A stretch of 64,000 nucleotides of DNA from an uncultured Eubacteriales bacterium. GTDB lineage: Bacteria > Bacillota > Clostridia > Tissierellales > Peptoniphilaceae. Numbering within the stretch: position 1 is the stretch's first letter; each line of letters starts with the position of its first letter. The position numbers and the translations under genes are program-made. The DNA lies in assembly GCA_900540185.1 (NCBI GenBank), contig UQFH01000002.1, positions 16,817 through 80,816 on the forward strand. The letters are read 5' to 3'. The notes beneath the pieces were generated by a model. The model was not told the origin of the DNA. It saw nothing but the letters and a program-made list of their open reading frames with translations, and ran no database searches. Shown here in pieces: positions 4,534 through 59,927 of this stretch.

Positions 4534-5200
4534 TTGCGGTTATTTTATTTGCGGTTATTTTCGCTATAAATGCTTGATTCAATATTTTAGTCGCTGCGAC
4601 GTACTTACCAGTACGCCTCACTCCTAAAATATTTCATCTAAGCGTTTCTCATCGAAAATTCCTCGCAAATAACGGTGTATGTAGGGGAAAAATTTTTTGA
4701 TTTTTCAAAACTTACCGTTGTTAATATTTTTATATATTATATGTACACATAAATGGGCGGCGCAAACGTTATAGCCCTAACCCGTGCTTTTTGATTTGAC
4801 AAAATCAAAAACACGATGGTAGGACTTATACAAAGACGTCCGACGACATTTCGACGAACAGGAGAAATGAGTCGTTGACGTCGATTGTGCATGCGCCGTT
4901 ACGTTCTGGGAAGCACACAATGATGTGTAGAATCATATGTCGTAAAAGTTATACGCGAAGATAAAATTTTAAGGTTAGAATAAATTACTGTGAATGAATT
5001 ATTGTTGGATGTGATTACGTTATTTGTAGCGTCGGGCTACGTCTCGACGCATGAGATATAGATAAACACACGCGTATAAACAATTTAAAAATAGATTCAA
5101 ATAAACGCCGTCTGTAACGGCGACCAGTTTTTTTATCCATCGAGCAGAAATCTGTGATTTCGCCTGGAGATGAGATAAAAAGGTGTATCGCCGCCAATAA
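4531..5200. repeat. intergenic repeat cluster A (units R1, R4 with a nested insert, R3, R2a)
   Basis: R1 at 4531-4674, R4 at 4754-4940, R3 at 4985-5100 and R2 at 5104-5198. Each is matched by copies at other loci in the window (see findings). Confidence 0.85.
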
Positions 5201-5347
5201 GGAAAAGTTGTGGGGTTGTAATTTACATAAATGCCATAACCGGCGCCGGGAAATTTTTATTCCTAGCGTCGTAACATATGTCGGTCGCTATGTCGCGCAT
5301 TAGAATGTATAAAATATAAATAAATGTATTTTACATAAAAGCCCATG

Positions 5348-14327: not shown

Positions 14328-14332
14328 AAAAA

Positions 14333-14790
14333 TTTGCGGTCTATTTTGCGATAAACGACTGATCTCGTGTTTTAGTCGTTGCGGCATATTTACCAATATG
14401 CCTCACTCCAAAAACACTCAATCTAGCCGTTTCTCATCAAAATATCCTCGCAAATGGGTGGGGATTAATTGTAGAAAATGGAAAACACAGCACGTAACGG
14501 CGACCGGTTTTTTATCCATCGAGCAGAAATCTATGATTTCGTCGTGAAATGAGATAAAAAAGTGTATCGCCGCCAATATGGAGAATGAAATGGATAGATT
14601 TTGAAACCGCGAAAGGATGGTTGAAAATAAAAATCGTAAATATGTTATACGTCAACATTAGCTCCATGTGAAAATAAATTAATGTATATGGTATATTGTT
14701 GTATGGGATTACGCTCTTTGTAGCGTCGCATTACATTGCGACGCATGAGATATAGACAAACAGACGTGTATGTGCAATAAAATTTTGCAA
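14333..14790. repeat. intergenic repeat cluster B (diverged R1, R2a, R3)
   Basis: R1 at 14333-14455, R2a at 14490-14578 and R3 at 14672-14790 match cluster A units. Confidence 0.8.
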
Positions 14791-16265: not shown

Positions 16266-16270
16266 AATTA

Positions 16271-16905
16271 ATTTGCGCGCTATTTTGCGATAAACGGTTG
16301 ATTCAATATTTCAGTCGCTGCGACGTACTTGCCAGTACGCCTCACTCCTAAAATATTTCATCTAACCGTTTCTCATCAAAATATCATCGCAAATAACAGT
16401 GTGTTTTAATTGTATAAAATGGCAAACACAGCCGTAGCGGGACGGTTCTGCGAATCCTCCTGCCTAAACACCTGCGCAATCAAAAATTAAGTTTACGGCG
16501 CATGTCATCAAAATATCCTCGCAAATTATTGGATAGTATTTGCGGTTTGCAGTCAACGTCTGCGACTCATTTCTCCTATTCGTCGAAATGTCGCCGGACG
16601 TCTTTGCGGAAGACCTACCATCGTGTTTTTGATTTGAAAAATCAAAAAGCACGGGTTAGGGCTATCTTTTCGCGATAAACGCTTGATTCATATTTTAGTC
16701 GCTGCGACGTACCTATCAGTACGCCTCACTCCTAAAATATTTCATCTAAGCGTTTCTCATCGAAAATTCCACGCAAATAACAGTGTGTATAAATTGTATA
16801 AAATTACAAACGCCATCCGTAACGGCGACCGGTTTTTCGACGCACGAAATAGAAATCTTTGATTTTGTAATTGAGTGCAGAGAAAAGCGTATCGCCGCTA
16901 TAATG
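16271..16905. repeat. intergenic repeat cluster C (R1, R2c plus R1b tail, inverted R4 inner piece, 5'-truncated R1, R2b)
   Basis: R1 at 16271-16398 and 16664-16782. 16536-16665 is the reverse complement of 4770-4885. R2b at 16809-16903. Confidence 0.85.
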
Positions 16906-37114: not shown

Positions 37115-37140
37115 AAGGCGTTTAATGCGCCTTTTTTATT
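37115..37140 (+). terminator. fprA terminator
   Basis: AAGGCG-TTTAATG-CGCCTT followed by TTTTT, immediately followed by an R1b repeat head. Confidence 0.6.
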
Positions 37141-37840
37141 TGCGGTCTATTTTGCGACCTGCTTGCAAACGTCAATTATTTGATTGCTCGGAGTGCACTT
37201 GAGCACACCTGCGCAATCAAAAATTGAGTATGCGGCGCATCTCATCAAAATATCCTCGCAAACTGATTTTATATCTGCGGTCTATATGTGAATTATTATA
37301 TAAAAGAAGAAAACGCCGCCGTAGCGGGACGGCACTGTGTGTCCTCCCGCAAAAAAACCTCACTCCTAAAATATTTCATCTAAGCGTTTCTCATCGAAAA
37401 TTCCTAGCAAATGGATTTTATAATTGCGCGTAATTAATTGTAGAAACTTGAAAACACTGCCGTAGCGGGACGGTTCTGCGAATCCTCCCGCCTAAACACC
37501 TGCGCGATCAAAAATTGAGTTTGCGGCGCATCTCATCAAAATATCCTCGCAAACTGATTTTATATTTACGGGATTTTCGCGATAAAGTTTTGAGGCTGTA
37601 TTATTTTTTGTACGCAGAACGTAGCGGCTGGCATACGTTACAACGTGAAAAAGAAATCTTTGATTTCGTTTTTGAGCGAGAAGTAACGACGTCCTGCCGC
37701 AAAAAGCCTCACTCCTAAAATATTTCATCTAAGCGTTTCTCATCGAAAATTCCTCGCAAATAACGGCGAAGATTAATTGTAGAAAATTGCAAACGCCGTC
37801 CGTAACGATGGCACTTTGTGTCCCGCTGCCAATAGGGAGA
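37137..37840. repeat. intergenic repeat cluster D (R1b, R2c plus R1 tail, R2c plus R1b tail, R1 tail, R2c)
   Basis: R1b at 37137-37265. R2c heads at 37301-37350, 37452-37494 and 37790-37838. R1 and R1b tails at 37358-37413, 37496-37555 and 37708-37764. Confidence 0.85.
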
Positions 37841-37980: not shown

Positions 37981-39129
37981 ATGAATCAGAAAATTGTTAT
38001 TTCAGCTTTAGTATTTGCTTCGATTTTTATTTTCGGTTGCAAAAAAGATGTGGAACCTAAAAAGCCGGTTGCACTTATCGAGGGAGACGAAAACAAGGCG
38101 GCATATAACGAGTTTTTAAAGACAAATCTTGAGACGATTTTAAATGATGAAACCGCATTGGAAAACAATTTTGTTTATTCGCCGTTTTCGTACAGGAGGG
38201 CGCTTGAAAGTTTGACTCTTGTGACGGATGATTTTACCGACAGTCCTTATTTCGGAGCTAAGCTTTTAAAGGATGCCGACGGAAACAATTTCAAGTCGAA
38301 GACGGAAGTAATTTTGAACAAAGATATGTTTAATATTAAAAACAAGGTTGACGAGTTTGTATTAAAAGATTTTCCGGGCGGCGCAGAGGACGAGTCGAAA
38401 AAGATTCAAAAGGATGTTTTGGGAGAGGTTATTTTGACACCTTCATACAAACCTGAGAATGCACTCGTGGTTTTAAATGCGACGGCGTTTGAAGGAAAGT
38501 GGGCGGAGGCTTTCGAAAAAAGTCGAACCTACAAGGATAATTTCACGACAATTTCGGGAGATGTTGCCCGGAAGGATTTTATGCAAGGAAATATCGACAA
38601 TGTTGTTCTACAAAATGAGCTTGTAGACATCGGTAGAAAGAGTATGGAAACGCCGGGGGACTATGCATATTTTTTGGATGTGAAAAATCCGACATCGGAA
38701 AATATTTTGGAGGTTGCAAGAGAGCTTCCAGGATATATTGAGTCGATGGAAAATCTTTCGACAAGTCTCGGAGTGAGCGAAAGAGAAACTGTATTTCTCG
38801 CTGTGCCGAAGTGCGACATCAAAACGAATGTAGATATTTTGGAGCTTGAGAAAAAGGGCGAGAACAAAGAGATTTTTGAGAAAGTAATTGACACAAATGA
38901 CAATCTCGAAAGATTAAGCGACGAACCGCTTTTTATTTCGGACATAAAACAAGCTGCATCTTTTAAGATGGACGAAAATAAAATCGTGGCGAAAGCGGCG
39001 ACGGAAATTACGATGGAGACTATGATGGCTCCGGCGGACGAACCGTTTGAAATAATCCTCGACAGTCCGCATTTTATAGTCACGACAACAAACGGCGTGA
39101 TTACATTTGTTGCGCTTGTTGTGAAGTAG
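37981..39129 (+). CDS. serpin-family serine protease inhibitor, predicted lipoprotein
   Basis: Lipobox FGC. Serpin-like NFVYSPFSYRRALESL. Hinge AKAATEITME. C-terminal F..DSPHFIV motif. Confidence 0.7.
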   Translation: MNQKIVISALVFASIFIFGCKKDVEPKKPVALIEGDENKAAYNEFLKTNLETILNDETALENNFVYSPFSYRRALESLTLVTDDFTDSPYFGAKLLKDADGNNFKSKTEVILNKDMFNIKNKVDEFVLKDFPGGAEDESKKIQKDVLGEVILTPSYKPENALVVLNATAFEGKWAEAFEKSRTYKDNFTTISGDVARKDFMQGNIDNVVLQNELVDIGRKSMETPGDYAYFLDVKNPTSENILEVARELPGYIESMENLSTSLGVSERETVFLAVPKCDIKTNVDILELEKKGENKEIFEKVIDTNDNLERLSDEPLFISDIKQAASFKMDENKIVAKAATEITMETMMAPADEPFEIILDSPHFIVTTTNGVITFVALVVK

Positions 39130-39172
39130 ATATAAATTATTGCACGTGATGGGCGTGCAATTTTTTTGTATT
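39056..39172 (+). repeat. left copy of a ~117-bp direct repeat (serpin 3' end plus terminator)
   Basis: Near-identical to 40765-40883. Confidence 0.9.
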
Positions 39173-39239
39173 AATTATAAAATTTCAGACAATACTTTAA
39201 ATCTCATACTATATCATCGAATAAACAATATAAAAATAT

Positions 39240-39248
39240 GGTATAATT
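39240..39248 (+). promoter_or_regulatory. extended -10 (TGGTATAAT)
   Basis: TGnTATAAT about 30 nt upstream of the inserted gene's start. Confidence 0.4.
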
Positions 39249-39280
39249 AAGTATAATATTTGCCGGAGAGGAGGGATACT

Positions 39281-40699
39281 TTGAACTTAAAAGACTATCT
39301 TGGAGAAACAAATCTATATGATAAAAAAGAAAAATTAGAAATAAATAAGCCGAAGTCTTGGTTAAAATCTGTGTCAGCCTTTGCTAATATTAGAGGTGGG
39401 AAGCTAATATTTGGAGTAAAAGAAGATAACACAATTCTTGGACTTAGTGACTATCAAGAAGTTTCTGAAAATATTTCTGAAATCATCAAAACTAAAATGG
39501 ATCCGAATCCGGAATTTGATATGGAAATAAAGGAAATTGATGGAAAAGTTATATTGATTTTAAGTGTATTTGACGGAAAAAACACTCCATACTTTGTAGT
39601 AGATGGTGGAACGAGAACAGCCTACAAAAGAATAGGAAATCAAAGTGTCCCTGCCAATAGAATGGACTTATTTAATTTATCGCTAAAAGGAGAACATATG
39701 AGTTACGATTCTCTTCAGTCAAAGAAAAGATTAGAAGATGTAACTTTTAAAGAGCTTAGCATAGAATATAAAAATAGGACAGAGAAAGAATTTGAAGTTA
39801 AAGATTTGAAATCTTTTGGACTTGTAAATGAGGAGGGAAACCTAACCATAGCAGGAGCTTTATTTGCAGATAACTATCAAGTTTATCAGTCAAGGGTATT
39901 TTGTACTAGATGGAATGGGATTACTAAAGCGAATGGTCGAATAGATGCTTTAGATGATGCTGAATTTGAAGGAAATATAATTTATCTTTTAAAAGCGTCT
40001 TTGGACTTTGTGAAAAGAAATTCAAAAAAGATGTGGAAGAAAGGTCCGGTTTATAGAATAGAATATCCGGAATATCCGGAAAGGGCAGTCCAAGAAGCTA
40101 TAGTAAACGCATTAATCCACAGAGATTATTCTGTGATAGGTAGTGAAGTTCATGTAGATATATATGACGATAGGTTAGAAATATATTCTCCTGGAGGAAT
40201 GTATGACGGAACATTCGTGCAGGATCTCAATCCGTTGAATGTATCTTCCACAAGACGAAATCCAATCATAGCGGATGTATTTGCTAGAATGGATTTAATG
40301 GAAAGACGAGGATCCGGACTCAGAAAAATTATAGAAGCTTATGAAGCTGAAGAAAATTATAAAGAAGAATTAAAGCCGGAGTTTAAGTCGACAGAATCTT
40401 CTTTTATTACGATTCTAAAAAATCTAAATTATGACACCCAAAATGTCACCCAAAATGTCACTCAAAATGTCACCCAAAGTGAGGGACAAAATGACGGTCA
40501 AAAATTAAAGCCAAGTGATAGGCGTTATAAAATTCTTGAAATAATAAAAAATAATCCTAAAATAACTGCCTATGATTTATCTAAACAATTTAATGTAACT
40601 GACAGAACTATAAAAAGAGATTTAAAAATTCTCACAGATGAAAAAACCATCGGGTATATAGGAAGCGCTAAAAATGGATATTGGATAGTAAACGAATAA
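39281..40699 (+). CDS. AlbA_2 (Schlafen-like) / HATPase_c_4 / C-terminal HTH putative DNA-binding ATPase-type regulator
   Basis: TTG start at 39281 with a GGAGAGGAGGG RBS (ORF-track start 39260). Domain order is recognisable by eye. QNVT x3 repeat in the linker. Confidence 0.8.
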   Translation: MNLKDYLGETNLYDKKEKLEINKPKSWLKSVSAFANIRGGKLIFGVKEDNTILGLSDYQEVSENISEIIKTKMDPNPEFDMEIKEIDGKVILILSVFDGKNTPYFVVDGGTRTAYKRIGNQSVPANRMDLFNLSLKGEHMSYDSLQSKKRLEDVTFKELSIEYKNRTEKEFEVKDLKSFGLVNEEGNLTIAGALFADNYQVYQSRVFCTRWNGITKANGRIDALDDAEFEGNIIYLLKASLDFVKRNSKKMWKKGPVYRIEYPEYPERAVQEAIVNALIHRDYSVIGSEVHVDIYDDRLEIYSPGGMYDGTFVQDLNPLNVSSTRRNPIIADVFARMDLMERRGSGLRKIIEAYEAEENYKEELKPEFKSTESSFITILKNLNYDTQNVTQNVTQNVTQSEGQNDGQKLKPSDRRYKILEIIKNNPKITAYDLSKQFNVTDRTIKRDLKILTDEKTIGYIGSAKNGYWIVNE

Positions 40700-40764
40700 A
40701 GTTAATAAGAAAATCGACTTGTCGCATGAAAAACAAAATAGTCGGATAAAAGTAATGAACTCAT

Positions 40765-40883
40765 TCTCGACAGTCCACATTTTATAGTCACGACAACAAA
40801 CGGTGTGATTACATTTGTTGCGCTTGTTGTGTAGTAGATTTTTAAAATTATTGCACGCATATCGCGTGCAATTTTTTTATATT
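40765..40883 (+). repeat. right copy of the ~117-bp direct repeat
   Basis: Duplicates the serpin 3' end (with a premature TAG) and the terminator hairpin. Confidence 0.9.
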
Positions 40884-41053
40884 TTTTGGAAAGGAAATTT
40901 TAATTTTATCTTAATCTTTTTCTATTGACAAAGTCTTCTTAAGTATATATAATATTTATTGAGAATCAAGGGGCGAACCCCTTGACTTTTTGGTGTTTAT
41001 TATTGTATAATAAACTATATCTCAGATTTATAAAAGCTTGGGAGGTGAAGCGA

Positions 41054-41203
41054 ATGAGAGATAGTATCACCTTAGAATGCACTGAGTGCAAACAAAGAAA
41101 TTATGTGACAGACAAGAACAAGAAAAACACTACTGACAGAGTCGAACTCAAGAAGTATTGCAAGTTCTGTAAAAAGCACACAGTACACAAGGAAACAAAA
41201 TAG
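41054..41203 (+). CDS. rpmG: 50S ribosomal protein L33
   Basis: [17 protein letters not shown]...; GGGAGGTG RBS. Confidence 0.9.
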
Positions 41204-44152: not shown

Positions 44153-44214
44153 TTTAAGTATAATAGAGATAGTTTAATAGGGAATGAAGTTTCCCGTTAA
44201 TTGCAACTGCTGAT

Positions 44215-44253
44215 GACTTCTACAAATTTTTGTAGGGGGAGTCGGCTTTTTTT
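44215..44253 (+). terminator. hairpin plus T-run between the radical SAM gene and the antiporter
   Basis: GACTTCTACAAA-TTTTT-GTAGGGGGAGTC followed by GGCTTTTTTT. The T-run ends 3 nt before the GGAGG RBS of the antiporter. Confidence 0.45.
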
Positions 44254-44264
44254 ATGGAGGCATT

Positions 44265-45440
44265 ATGTTATTAAGTTTATCGATTATCTTTATTTTTGGA
44301 ATCATCATGAGCTATCTGTGCGGAAAAGTGAAACTTCCGGCGCTCTTCGGAATGATTCTTTTGGGAATTTTAATTGGACCGAGTGTTTTAAATTTGCTCG
44401 ACGAAAAAACACTTTTGATTTCAGGGGAGCTTCGAAAAATCGCACTCATAATAATACTCACTCGTGCAGGACTCGGGCTCAATCTCGAAGATTTAAAGAG
44501 AGCGGGACTAAGCGCAATTTTACTCTGCTTCGTGCCGGCGGTTTTTGAAGTGATAGGAATTGTTTTGATTGCACCGAGAATTTTTCCGATTACAACAAAG
44601 GAAGCATTTTTGATTGGAAGCGTTCTTGCAGCGGTGTCACCGGCGGTCGTTGTGCCGAAGATGATCGAGCTTATGGACAAGGGCTACGGCACCGACAAAT
44701 CGATTCCGCAAATGATACTTGCGGCGTCGAGTGTCGACGACGTGTTTGTAATTGTAATGTTTTCGGTTGCGCTCTCGATTGAAAAGGGCGGCGCTGTGAA
44801 CTATATGTCATTTTTAAACATACCGCTCTCGATTGCGCTCGGAATAATTCTCGGGATTCTTGCAGGTTTTATATACACGCTCATATTTAAAAAAGCAAAG
44901 ACAAATATGGTCATAAAATTGTTGGTGCTCATGAGCTTGTCTTTTTTGATGGTAACTTTGGAAGACGCAAAACTCTTTCCGATTTCGGGACTCATTGCGG
45001 TTATGGTGAGCGGAATGACCGTAGGATATTTTGAGCCGACTCTCGCCGAAAAACTCTCGGAAAAATACTCGGGGCTTTGGATCGCTGCACAAATCTTGCT
45101 TTTTGTTTTGGTCGGCTCCATCATCGACATAAAATATGCGACGAGCTACGGTGCATTGACTCTTCTTGTAGTTTTGGGCGGACTTCTATTTAGAGCGGTC
45201 GGGGTCTGCGTCTCAACATTAAAAAGTGAACTCGACAGAAAAGAAAAACTTTTCGCGGCGATTGCATATATGCCGAAAGCGACTGTACAAGCGGCAATCG
45301 GTGGCATCCCTCTTCAAGCGGGGCTTGAGTGCGGAAACCTTGTTCTTACAACTGCGGTCATTGCAATACTTTTTACCGCACCAGTCGGAGCGTTTTTGAT
45401 TGACATGACACATAAAAAGCTTCTTTCAAAAAGTAAGTAA
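44265..45440 (+). CDS. cation:proton antiporter (CPA family Na+/H+ exchanger)
   Basis: 391 aa with about 11-12 TM segments and CPA-typical motifs. Confidence 0.85.
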   Translation: MLLSLSIIFIFGIIMSYLCGKVKLPALFGMILLGILIGPSVLNLLDEKTLLISGELRKIALIIILTRAGLGLNLEDLKRAGLSAILLCFVPAVFEVIGIVLIAPRIFPITTKEAFLIGSVLAAVSPAVVVPKMIELMDKGYGTDKSIPQMILAASSVDDVFVIVMFSVALSIEKGGAVNYMSFLNIPLSIALGIILGILAGFIYTLIFKKAKTNMVIKLLVLMSLSFLMVTLEDAKLFPISGLIAVMVSGMTVGYFEPTLAEKLSEKYSGLWIAAQILLFVLVGSIIDIKYATSYGALTLLVVLGGLLFRAVGVCVSTLKSELDRKEKLFAAIAYMPKATVQAAIGGIPLQAGLECGNLVLTTAVIAILFTAPVGAFLIDMTHKKLLSKSK

Positions 45441-46034: not shown

Positions 46035-46580
46035 GGCATTTGCGGTCTAATTTGCAAATTATAAATTGTATAACGTTGCACGTCGTCCGTAACGGCGACC
46101 GGGTTTTCGACGTACGAAATAGAAATCTATCATTTCGTAATTGAGTGCAGAGAAAAGTGTATTGCCGTAAAAGAAGGGAATATTGGGATAAGATTTTGGT
46201 GAGATATTGTATTGACACAGCGTTGTTGGTGGTGATACATATTCCAAAAACTCAAAAATTGGCGGCGCAACGTAGTGCGCCGTTACGTTCTGGGAAACTC
46301 ACAATGATGTGTGAATTAATATATTGTAAAAATTTTATAAGGATTAAATATTACAATGTGTGTTTGAATATATTAATGTGTTCTGTTTATGTATAAAATG
46401 ACAAAATTTGTAGCGGCGGCTACGTCCCGATGCATGAGATATGGATAAACACACGTGTATAAACAATATAAAATAGATTCAAATAAACGCTGTCCGTAGC
46501 GGCGACCGGGTTTTTTATCCATCGAGCAGAAATCTATGATTTCGTCGTGAGATGAGATAAAAAGGCGTATCGCCGCCAAG
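46035..46580. repeat. intergenic repeat cluster E (R1 head, R2b, R4 lacking the inner piece, R3, R2a)
   Basis: R2b at 46078-46170, R4 at 46255-46320, R3 at 46400-46485 and R2a at 46488-46580. Confidence 0.85.
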
Positions 46581-46792
46581 AGGGGAAATACATAATACAT
46601 AGAATAAAATTTAAAACACGTAATGGTGGGTGGGGTTGAATATGGAATTGTGGTTTTCGATTCGATATTTTATATACACAACGTTGTTGGTGGTATTCTT
46701 AAGAAAATTTATATATTATTTAAATTAAATTACATATTGACTTTAACTTTATTAAAGAGTATACTTAACATAATTAAAGTAGGAGGAGCAAG

Positions 46793-52580: not shown

Positions 52581-52606
52581 AGGAACCGGCTTTCGCCGGT
52601 TCTTTT
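52581..52606 (+). terminator. terminator
   Basis: GAACCGGC-TTTC-GCCGGTTC followed by TTTTTT, then an R1 repeat. Confidence 0.65.
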
Positions 52607-52607
52607 T

Positions 52608-52945
52608 TATTTGCGGGCCTTTTCGCGATAAACGCTTGATTCAATATTTTAGTCGCTGCGACATATTTATCAATATGCCTCACTCCTAAAATATTTCATC
52701 GTAAGCGTTTCTCATCGAAAATTCCACGCAAATTACTTTTTTGCGTGTATTATATATGTAAAATATCTCAATGTGAAAATAAATTACTGTAAATGAATTA
52801 TTGTTGTATGCGGTTACGTTGTTTGTAGCGTCGGGCTACGTCCCGACGCATGAGATATAGATAAACATACGCGTATAAGCAATAAGGTAATACAAATTTT
52901 ACACGCCGTCTGTAACGGCGGGCACTGTGTGTCCCACCCCCCCTT
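52608..52945. repeat. intergenic repeat cluster F (R1, R3, R2c)
   Basis: R1 at 52608-52735, R3 at 52772-52890 and an R2c head at 52901-52945. Confidence 0.85.
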
Positions 52946-53271
52946 TTTGTGTACATATAATATGTATTATTACCAACAACGCTGTCCCCATAAAACATCG
53001 AACCAAAACTCCGTAAATATCTGTTAAAAACATATCCCCAAATATTTCCAATCGCCTATAACTATACAACATATTGATGAAATATTGCCTAAAAACAAAG
53101 TTCTTATATACCAAAACCTATCGCAATGCCGCAATTTTTCCCATAATATACATAAAACACTCAAAATCTTTAATCATATAAAAAACAATTCTACAATTTT
53201 CAAATGCCGAATTATTATTCTCATTATATTTTTATAAATTTTTTAAAAGCTGAAAAACTTTTGTAATACAA

Positions 53272-59717: not shown

Positions 59718-59750
59718 AAAGACGCCTGATTATGTAGGGCGTCTTTTTTT
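59718..59750 (+). terminator. terminator
   Basis: AGACGCC-TGATTATGTAG-GGCGTCT followed by TTTTTTT, then an R1b repeat. Confidence 0.65.
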
Positions 59751-59876
59751 ATTTGCGGTCTATTTTGCGACCTGCTTGCAAACTTCAATTGTTTGATTGC
59801 TCGGAGTGCACTTAGCACACCTGCGCAATCAAAAATTGAGTTTACGGCGCATCTCATCAAAATAGCCCGCAAATAA
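59750..59876 (+). repeat. R1b repeat copy
   Basis: Near-identical to 37137-37265. Confidence 0.9.
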
Positions 59877-59927
59877 AAAAGAACCCACAAAAAAACTCCA
59901 TAATACATAAGTATTACAGAGCATAAA

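Follow-up and report, generated by a model that had tools for sequence, protein, structure and literature searches.

Capture of a single conjugative-element gene beside a serpin gene in gut Ezakiella, with a long duplication of the target

How does a single gene come to lie between two copies of the end of its upstream neighbour? The question is raised by a locus of a gut Ezakiella species (Peptoniphilaceae), contained in a stretch of 64,000 nucleotides (assembly GCA_900540185.1, contig UQFH01000002.1, positions 16,817 to 80,816) to which we refer as the window. There, a serpin gene (37981–39129, plus strand) is followed by a gene encoding a 472-residue protein with Schlafen, ATPase and winged helix-turn-helix (HTH) domains (39281–40699, plus strand), and then by the rpmG-secE-nusG-rplK-rplA block. 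An earlier reading made without database searches (the sequence-only reading) had placed near-identical copies of the serpin end and its hairpin at 39056–39172 and 40765–40883, with only an AT-rich promoter region and one gene between them, and had described the whole as a single-gene unit with a long target duplication. Our analysis agrees with this description: direct repeats of about 130 bp, located at 39048–39177 (copy A) and 40756–40888 (copy B), both on the plus strand, bracket an AT-rich leader and one open reading frame (ORF) only. The gene capture at this locus is real, old and polymorphic, and the target duplication that came with it is unusually long; it is a variant of a known event and no new kind of mobile element.

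A repeat search of the window resolves the duplication into a coding part (39048–39131 versus 40756–40839, 84 nt, 93% identity) and a hairpin part (39134–39181 versus 40845–40892, 48 nt, 77%), with a 3-nt insertion or deletion in the spacer past the serpin stop codon. By blastn the two copies align over 128 nt at 86.7% identity (E ~1e-38 to 1e-41), which is far beyond chance, and a weak similarity may extend 15–30 nt beyond the T-run. Each copy contains the final 72 nt of the serpin reading frame, stop codon included (39058–39129 in A), a 9-pair hairpin and a T-run. Copy A, delimited by repeat search, blastn and strain alignment, is the functional serpin 3′ end with spacer, terminator hairpin, T-run and a few bases past it. 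Copy B, delimited by the repeats, by alignment with empty sites and by tblastn, is an orphan serpin 3′ fragment with hairpin and T-run, running into the rpmG upstream region as in empty sites. The orphan fragment is matched by tblastn of serpin residues 352–381 (E 1e-9), and its last serpin codon has changed from AAG to TAG at 40832 in the window, AAG being kept in the B copies of other strains. A leftward extension of copy B (14 of 28 positions alike upstream of CTCGAC; SDKSNELIL aligned with ADEPFEIIL by tblastn) was set aside as chance or a microhomology patch, no serpin allele having such sequence.

Both hairpins are scored as intrinsic terminators, their folds being much more stable than those of shuffled sequence. 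Terminator A (39139–39167, plus strand; hairpin 39139–39161, T-run 39161–39167; −16.4 kcal/mol, z −4.9) is predicted to end serpin transcription, while terminator B (40850–40878, plus strand; hairpin 40850–40872, T-run 40872–40878; −16.9 kcal/mol, z −5.5) is the sole predicted terminator of the captured gene and would insulate the rpmG operon. The compensating stem changes reported by the sequence-only reading proved wrong: the 7-bp stem TTGCACG/CGTGCAA is the same in A and B, and the differences reside in the loop (TGATGGG in A, CATATCG in B) and in one closing position, where a T·G pair in A becomes C-G in B.

The DNA enclosed by the copies is a segment of a widespread integrative and conjugative element (ICE) of Firmicutes. 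From 39198 to 40745 (plus strand; blastn boundaries and flank comparison) the window is 85–90% identical in nucleotide sequence to ICE copies, the segment comprising the intergenic promoter region, the gene and ~46 nt of 3′ untranslated region (UTR). The edges of this homology repeat in more than 10 genomes, the start at ~39198 coinciding with the stop codon of a CD1107-like gene and the end, at 40723–40745, falling just before the strong terminator of the ICE. In the ICE the gene is flanked by the acidic tail of the CD1107-like gene on one side and the start of topB on the other, and the gene order is TraG-like ATPase, NlpC/P60 hydrolase, CD1107-like membrane protein, this gene, topoisomerase III, DNA methylase and a giant SNF2/Eco57I-like protein; the homology, non-coding flanks included, is to a gene lying among conjugation genes. 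Proteins 87–95% identical are found in Enterococcus faecalis, Streptococcus agalactiae, Clostridium perfringens, Peptoniphilus, Anaerococcus and Helcococcus. The GC content of the insert (~31%, against ~41% in the flanks) and the ICE origin both support the earlier proposal that foreign DNA had been inserted. Neither flank alignment nor folding detected the ICE's own terminator in the window, the 3′ UTR of which does not fold (z +0.9), as compared with −31.6 kcal/mol in the ICE. Because this terminator is absent, the captured unit consists of promoter, ORF and short 3′ UTR, with copy B as its only terminator before the rpmG promoter. No serpin-like sequence was found beside the gene in ICE copies from more than 12 genomes.

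The unit appears to carry its own promoter, as an extended −10-like element, TGGTATAAT (39240–39248, plus strand), is kept in chromosomal and ICE copies; this assignment is a reading of the sequence, as a consensus scan left the element unflagged owing to its weak −35 region. A ribosome-binding site, GGAGAGGAGGG (39266–39276), and a TTG start codon at 39281 are likewise read from the sequence. Alignment with ICE copies and empty sites leaves a left junction at 39178–39197, in which CAGACAATACTTTAA may derive, with divergence, from the end and TAA stop of the ICE CD1107-like gene, and a right junction at 40746–40765, in which TGAACTCATT resembles TGAAATAATC, situated in the serpin gene just left of copy A, at 7/10 positions, a possible imperfect microhomology patch. 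A similarity between AATGAACTCATT at the right junction and GATGAACTATTA at the end of the ICE CD1107-like gene, which hinted at a circularly permuted donor, amounts to 7+3 nt found after several looks, and is kept as a lead only.

We have analysed the locus in other strains, collected by look-ups of the exact protein and of close serpin homologues in independent gut metagenome assemblies. The assignment to Ezakiella comes from an exact NusG match and from serpin fragments with an E. coagulans annotation; in E. coagulans, to judge by the accession numbers, two annotated genes separate the serpin fragment from rpmG. Filled loci with the same architecture (L001–L003, L011–L013, L022, L090 and L091) come from at least 8 independent metagenome assemblies. 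Empty loci, in which the serpin gene, a single copy of the repeat and rpmG follow each other, are found in the same species (L015) and in the sister serpin clade (L016–L020 and L098). The comparison of empty and filled sites proposed by the sequence-only reading thus finds both states among relatives, and the ancestral order that it had supposed, serpin and then rpmG, agrees with the single-copy sites. L015 is 99–100% identical to the window from rpmG to rplA, and at the empty sites the sequence right of the T-run exactly equals the right flank of copy B. The existence of empty sites among relatives also excludes that all of them carry the gene without a duplication, as would be expected from a tandem duplication artefact.

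Decaying and replaced forms are also present. The 5′-deleted remnants L096/L097 and L099 retain copy B and an ORF of 134–141 residues with the C-terminal HTH only; in L096/L097 the lost DNA extends from within hairpin A up to 40294 of the window, with TTTAA microhomology, and in L099 from the promoter up to 40300, with GGA microhomology. The deletions of L096 (5149–5600; window 39147–40294) and L099 (5180–5670; window 39245–40300) are independent and belong to different serpin clades, and their ends lie within 6 nt of each other. Both remove the SLFN domain and most of the ATPase domain, leaving an ORF which starts at or fuses to MERRGSG and keeps the linker and the winged HTH. Other genomes also have C-terminal parts of the gene only (L058, L063, L074, L080, L087 and L088), and such remnants may reflect counter-selection of the nuclease part or a role for the HTH fragment. 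In L021, different DNA starts 2–4 nt past the same serpin T-run (L021 7180–8348), the contig stopping before the far junction; the 301-residue minus-strand ORF of this insertion has no Pfam match, and the terminator-proximal spot may be an insertion hot spot. One locus with the gene and no upstream serpin (L092) was judged to be a chimeric contig and rejected, its first 520 nt being a Peptoniphilus repeat and the coverage of the contig 3x. This GC-rich dispersed repeat (GGAGGGG...CCCCTCC motifs; L092 1–520, L029, L031, L032, L056, L058 and L088) is common between Peptoniphilus genes beside AlbA_2 homologues, and probably caused the joining of Peptoniphilus and Ezakiella sequence in L092.

Clade-1 strains and the clade-2 remnant L099 have identical sequences at both the left and the right junction and, because the two serpin clades thus agree, the filled alleles go back to a single insertion event. 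The insertion is old, since the synonymous divergence (dS) between chromosomal and ICE copies is 0.43–0.45, slightly above that between the two serpin clades (0.37–0.39); among chromosomal alleles dS is 0.14–0.18, similar to the adjoining serpin alleles. The serpin gene and the captured gene are both mosaic, with patches of 76–90% identity among strains whose ribosomal genes are 99–100% identical. Clade-specific characters are found in both A and B, which in L099 differ by one base, and the clade-1 B copies have B-specific substitutions in common. As judged from these alignments, the pattern fits ordinary homologous recombination, with replacement into A from the serpin side and into B from the rpmG side, plus exchange between A and B. 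Because the copies have been overwritten by recombination, the 7% divergence between A and B in the window gives no date for the duplication. The present-day empty sites may be never-filled alleles or precise losses by A × B recombination, and the order of serpin and then rpmG before the capture stands either way.

Homologues of the gene in other genomes were also inspected for flanking duplications, using neighbouring ORFs, and not matched accessory genes, as controls. Flanking repeats were found at 6 of ~50 homologues in species-representative genomes, as compared with 7 of 221 neighbouring ORFs, and at 8 of 60 homologues on metagenome contigs of the Joint Genome Institute, as compared with 2 of 59 neighbouring ORFs. 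Pooled, this gives 14/110 homologues versus 9/280 neighbouring ORFs (Fisher p ~0.001), a suggestive enrichment around proteins of this domain architecture. The clean cases involve different targets: in Enterocloster lavalensis (L066) 140 nt are repeated at 96% identity, from the 3′ end of an upstream membrane-protein gene through its stop codon; in L104, 109 nt (94%) from the 3′ end of a ComM-like gene, with a ~12-nt near-identity (CAAAATATCACG) at the right junction; in L044, a perfect 36-nt repeat of the stop/ribosome-binding site/start overlap of two genes; and in L065, a perfect 46-nt repeat of a terminator hairpin. Across these loci and the window the ends of the insert are not defined with respect to the gene, being situated −16 to −360 nt upstream and +1 to +99 nt downstream of it, and because they vary so widely we regard the cases as capture events rather than as an element with defined ends. 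Several other positives are no target duplications: the flanking repeats of L029 and L040 are members of dispersed repeat families and were dropped from the clean cases, and L125, L126 and L131 are one family. Direct repeats of 50–90 nt were also observed, near AlbA_2 homologues, around a secreted Cu_amine_oxidN1/glutaredoxin-like gene of Peptoniphilus (L029 5087–6016, L056 3697–4635 and L088 5723–6652) and around a gene for a Cys-rich 386-residue protein of Lachnospiraceae (L060 12810–13970 and L062 12899–14068); accessory genes of these Firmicutes may thus be prone to duplicative insertion in general.

No integrase, transposase or integron feature was found in the insert or within ~6 kb on either side, where the genes encode DHH, ADP-ribosylglycohydrolase, ODP/flavodoxin, serpin, L33, SecE, NusG, L11, L1, radical SAM and Na/H exchanger proteins. 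We concur with the sequence-only reading that this is not a classical transposon: the insert has no transposase domain and no significant terminal inverted repeats, and the duplication is long (~130 bp, with 36–140 bp in the analogous cases). The best candidate for terminal inverted repeats, CAATACTTTAA (39190–39200) against the reverse complement of TAAAAGTAATG (40747–40757), matches at 9/11 positions and was rejected, with a probability by chance of ~0.2 on our own estimate. The integron-like or phage-like site-specific integration that had also been put forward is not supported by the locus, which lacks an integrase within ~6 kb, an attC-like site and a conserved core. Its sole inverted repeat is the 8–9-bp-stem terminator hairpin with its T-run, copied from the serpin terminator; the gene's 3′ UTR is unstructured, no intI lies within ~6 kb, and the unit has its own conserved −10 region. 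Integron gene cassettes do resemble it in being single-gene units beside an imperfect inverted repeat; however, the locus has no IntI, attI or attC, the inserted gene brings a promoter of its own, the hairpin with its T-run is the intrinsic terminator of the neighbour, and integron cassettes do not duplicate 130 bp of target. In all filled alleles one ORF (SLFN, GHKL, HTH) occupies the space between the repeats, with no recombinase as in an integrase island. A surrogate 3′ end supplied by an element's attP finds no counterpart in the more than 12 ICE genomes, and A and B have clade-specific host characters. The duplications around homologues have unrelated targets, and the ends of the inserts vary, which makes site-specific integration at an att site unlikely.

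We consider it probable (roughly 0.62) that a single recombinase-independent duplicative capture of the ICE gene took place in an Ezakiella ancestor and was followed by ordinary homologous recombination, a view which fits the 'duplicative gene-capture event' that the sequence-only reading had listed as an option. A 1.55-kb piece of the ICE, made of promoter and ORF and cut just before its own terminator, would have been captured once, directly downstream of the serpin terminator. In the illegitimate joining the rightward join would fall ~130 bp upstream of the leftward join, leaving the serpin end, the terminator and the T-run on both sides. The most economical single step would be a replication template switch from the chromosome to ICE DNA and back to the chromosome ~130 bp behind the exit, and the same product could also arise from double illegitimate joining across sister copies. 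The duplication left the serpin intact, gave the incoming gene a putative terminator (copy B) and would shield the rpmG operon from read-through, and selection for these effects probably explains the survival of this product. Later homologous recombination would then have spread the filled allele between lineages, overwritten parts of A and B with local serpin alleles and moved mosaic patches into the captured gene; A × B recombination probably gave precise losses, and with these empty sites again, and microhomology-mediated deletions would have given the truncated remnants.

That the duplication was made from the target during insertion is argued from the fact that both repeats are host-type, that the ICE copies have no serpin-like sequence and that no recombinase feature is present. 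Template switching of the type known as fork stalling and template switching or microhomology-mediated break-induced replication, together with homology-facilitated illegitimate recombination as known from transformable bacteria, offers a close likeness, in that there is no recombinase and the duplication is of variable length, and in the microhomology of the later L096/L099 deletions; the unassigned bases at the junctions may be filler, and the near-identity at L104 may be microhomology. The parallel differs in that here the mechanism is deduced from products alone, the window's own junction microhomology is weak, and homologous recombination has overwritten the traces of an ancient event. 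Several points weigh against the capture as we describe it. At each window junction 16–20 nt have no assignable source, and for so old an event the joining mechanism is unreadable; junction microhomology is limited to the 7/10 match on the right, with none convincing on the left; and the overwriting of A and B has blurred the original extent of the duplication. A history in two steps, with the gene first inserted in the 3′ end of the serpin and the damage then repaired by homology-facilitated illegitimate recombination, predicts the same final structure, and if the excess of flanking duplications around homologues is true, a more specific process than chance capture may be at work.

Among the alternatives, an unlikely one is a Campbell-type integration, in which a circle carrying the gene and one copy of the serpin 3′ end and terminator enters by a single RecA-dependent crossover and can be re-excised by A × B recombination. 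The product would have exactly the observed topology, with the unit between two copies of the same segment, and this route would explain movement between strains and the clean empty sites; the lack of scars at these sites and the loop types common to A and B copies of different strains speak for it. It leaves the origin unexplained, however, as an earlier illegitimate joining of ICE and serpin sequences would still be needed; neither a circular form nor a second location has been seen, and 130 bp of homology is a poor RecA substrate in comparison with the kilobases of flanking homology available for allelic exchange.

It is quite unlikely that genes of this family are recombinase-less single-gene mobile cassettes, which would leave ICEs and insert, by preference, just downstream of genes or terminators, copying 36–140 bp of target, perhaps more. 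Such cassettes could move by template switching from incoming single-stranded ICE DNA, by the nuclease, ATPase and DNA-binding activities of their own product, or by a dedicated host or ICE pathway, and the serpin/rpmG locus could then be one fossilised example. The pooled excess of flanking repeats, the five clean cases with unrelated targets (the window, L066, L104, L044 and L065) and the presence of many homologues on contigs of 1.6–2 kb are in line with this proposal. Nevertheless, several of the positives are the dispersed repeats or the single family described above, so that ~5/110 are left after cleaning, against controls which are not matched accessory genes. Moreover, the insert ends show no conservation, flanking repeats are absent around ICE-borne copies, one event lies behind all Ezakiella copies, and characterised SLFN domains are tRNA nucleases (PMC13462974; 10.64898/2026.05.29.728809).

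Duplication of a gene's 3′ end is a classic signature of integrase-mediated integration, as for phage 21 and e14 in icd, and many ICEs and islands integrate in the same manner. The window has in common with them that the repeat is the 3′ end of the target, that the target gene is functional and that the far end of the insert has an orphan fragment. In this reading a larger element with an integrase (phage, ICE or island) would have entered the serpin 3′ end with a replacement 3′ end and later been cut down to one gene, and the ICE origin of this gene and the second insertion in L021, a few bases past the same T-run, are points in favour. Yet such a remnant is very unlikely: none of more than 10 filled alleles has an integrase, and the 1.6-kb insert holds one gene. 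Both copies are Ezakiella-type, including the non-coding spacer and flank, with clade-specific characters in A and in B, and neither resembles an element-borne surrogate. The reduction would need two separate deletions inside the element, each ending precisely at the gene, the ICE copies have no serpin-like sequence, and the duplications around homologues are at unrelated targets.

A most improbable origin is a pair of tandem serpin paralogues, the second of which would have been mostly replaced by the foreign gene with its 3′ end left. In its favour, the copy B reading frame is open to the stop codon in several strains, but the similarity stops abruptly 72 nt before the stop codon, where the sequence upstream in B reads SDKSNEL, as against DEP[FL]EI in each of the 35 full-length alleles of the serpin; two serpins were seen at no locus, and the duplication covers the non-coding terminator and flank. 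Finally, in spite of the many short contigs that end near the serpin and of the chimeric appearance of L092, an assembly artefact (a collapsed or mis-joined repeat, which the sequence-only reading had named as a way to refute it) is practically excluded by the recurrence of the same structure in independent assemblies from different studies and assemblers, and by consistent sequence differences between A and B with strain-specific variants in both.

The captured protein is composed of an SLFN_AlbA_2 domain (residues 9–126; Pfam E 3.4e-21), a GHKL-type HATPase_c_4 domain (residues 287–378; E 1.3e-26), a repeat linker and the winged HTH (residues 414–454; E 5.4e-10). As PF04326 and PF13749 occur in one polypeptide, both over their gathering thresholds, it belongs to the proteins with the SLFN + GHKL pair, named the 'Schlatpase' supradomain and present in 58.6% of 103,533 prokaryotic Schlafen proteins (bioRxiv 10.64898/2026.05.29.728809). 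The linker is encoded by a 12-nt tandem repeat (CAAAATGTCACC-like, ~5 units, 40431–40490, plus strand; repeat search and allele comparison) specifying (Q-N-V/D-T), the copy number of which differs among alleles, with proteins of 464–484 residues. Fragments of this linker repeat were also noted downstream of homologues in L040 and L104, one of them being the junction microhomology of L104. Residues E9, D14, K15 and K16 are invariant in 10 homologues at 47–73% identity, in which the ERRGSG motif is also seen. With a ratio of non-synonymous to synonymous divergence (dN/dS) of 0.08–0.20, the gene has been kept functional under purifying selection.

Regarding function, prokaryotic Schlafen domains studied so far are tRNA nucleases in abortive infection, and architectures combining them with ATPase and DNA-binding domains are reportedly common and found near restriction-modification, BREX and CRISPR loci (PMC13462974). 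The captured protein has the same N-terminal PF04326 + PF13749 module as the Schlatpases of the system pairing SLFN with prokaryotic Argonaute, SLFN-pAgo (bioRxiv 10.64898/2026.05.29.728809), and its E9 and D14 have the 5-residue spacing of the catalytic E17 and D22 of CbCash, of the Cash system (PMC13462974). Unlike these, it carries a winged HTH in place of an Argonaute, CARF/Csx15 or other sensor domain. In the chromosome its gene stands alone; in the ICE, its native setting, it lies beside those for topoisomerase III, a DNA methylase and an SNF2/Eco57I-like protein. PADLOC matches were limited to the SLFN-GHKL part of pAgo/Aga models and the HTH of WYL/CARF models, with no partner genes nearby, and do not make up a known anti-phage defence system. 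Searches of PADLOC, NCBIfam and the PDB gave no specific function, the nearest solved structure being 3LMM, itself uncharacterised; Rfam and tRNA scans found no non-coding RNA at the locus, and a literature search on AlbA_2 with HATPase_c_4, or Ezakiella with serpin, returned nothing covering it. The protein is probably a defence- or ICE-associated nuclease of tRNA or other nucleic acid, under ATP and DNA-binding control. As a unit, the insert recalls phage 'morons' and ICE cargo modules, which likewise bring one foreign gene with its own promoter and lower GC content, bracketed by terminators between two intact host units and with no mobility gene of its own. It differs from them in lying in a bacterial chromosome by a ribosomal-protein operon, in having as terminator a copy of the host neighbour's made at insertion, and in its ~130-bp target duplication.

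The serpin gene encodes a protein of 382 residues with an N-terminal lipoprotein-like signal, which matches PF00079 over residues 152–381 (72 bits, E 6e-20) and carries the C-terminal serpin motif AKAATEI...PF.I.LD.PF, as read from the sequence; 36 close homologues are all of 382 residues, with the C-terminus common to all. The gene is a recombination mosaic, with patches of 78–89% identity (e.g. 38081–38280) to L011, L015, L016 and L022 next to ribosomal genes at 99–100%, and its reactive-centre loop differs between the clades (TMETMMAPADEP versus KKDTAMAPVDEP), a difference suggesting diversifying pressure on protease specificity. The 880-nt gap upstream is filled by a dispersed modular intergenic repeat family (units of ~50–160 nt, 70–97% identical) which recurs in the window at 4542–5206, 14329–14785, 16268–16897, 37132–37807, 46080–46694, 52605–53011 and 59745–59892, has no match in Rfam, and also flanks an AlbA_2 homologue of E. 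coagulans (L040). Many metagenome contigs end ~240 nt upstream of the serpin, and the genes found there vary by strain (ODP/flavodoxin, metH-like or Cu_amine_oxidN1).

The terminator loop is hypervariable, with at least 7 variants (window 39147–39153 and 40858–40864; L011–L099), and the 7-bp stem and the T-run never vary; across copies A, B and the single copies of various strains we find the loop types TGATGGG, TTTAAG, CATATCG/A, GATATCA, TATATCA and GACATCA, and the presence of common types in A and B copies of different strains indicates exchange. The reverse complement of the A loop, CCCATCA, fits other loops (GACATCA, CATATCA) better than its forward orientation, which may point to a loop inversion in A, over a very short sequence. 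Further downstream, a promoter scan places a promoter-like site (TTGACA-17-TATAAT, 40925–40953, plus strand) before rpmG (41054–41203), the first gene of its operon according to precomputed Pfam labels on identical loci. Between them, at 40966–41011, lies a GC-rich hairpin with a T-rich tail (TCAAGGGGCGAACCCCTTGA CTTTTTGG), which overlaps a second promoter-like site (40982–41011), is conserved in every strain examined, and may serve the rpmG-secE-nusG operon as a leader or attenuator. Beyond the operon, a fluoride riboswitch (Rfam RF01734, 46 bits; 44171–44229) is located directly upstream of a gene of the Na_H_Exchanger family (44265–45440), and not of a crcB/eriC-type exporter.

The locus is a well-resolved natural case of the domestication of one useful ICE gene without keeping the element, and empty, filled, decaying and replaced stages are all visible in one species. 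The target duplication would solve the regulatory problem of a terminator-less gene placed ahead of an essential ribosomal-protein operon. The strains also form a natural knock-in/knock-out series for a stand-alone protein in which the Schlatpase pair is joined to a winged HTH, the commonest prokaryotic Schlafen architecture. Should a matched survey confirm that genes of this family tend to be bracketed by long target duplications, genes would seem to move by a route that has so far gone unrecognised.

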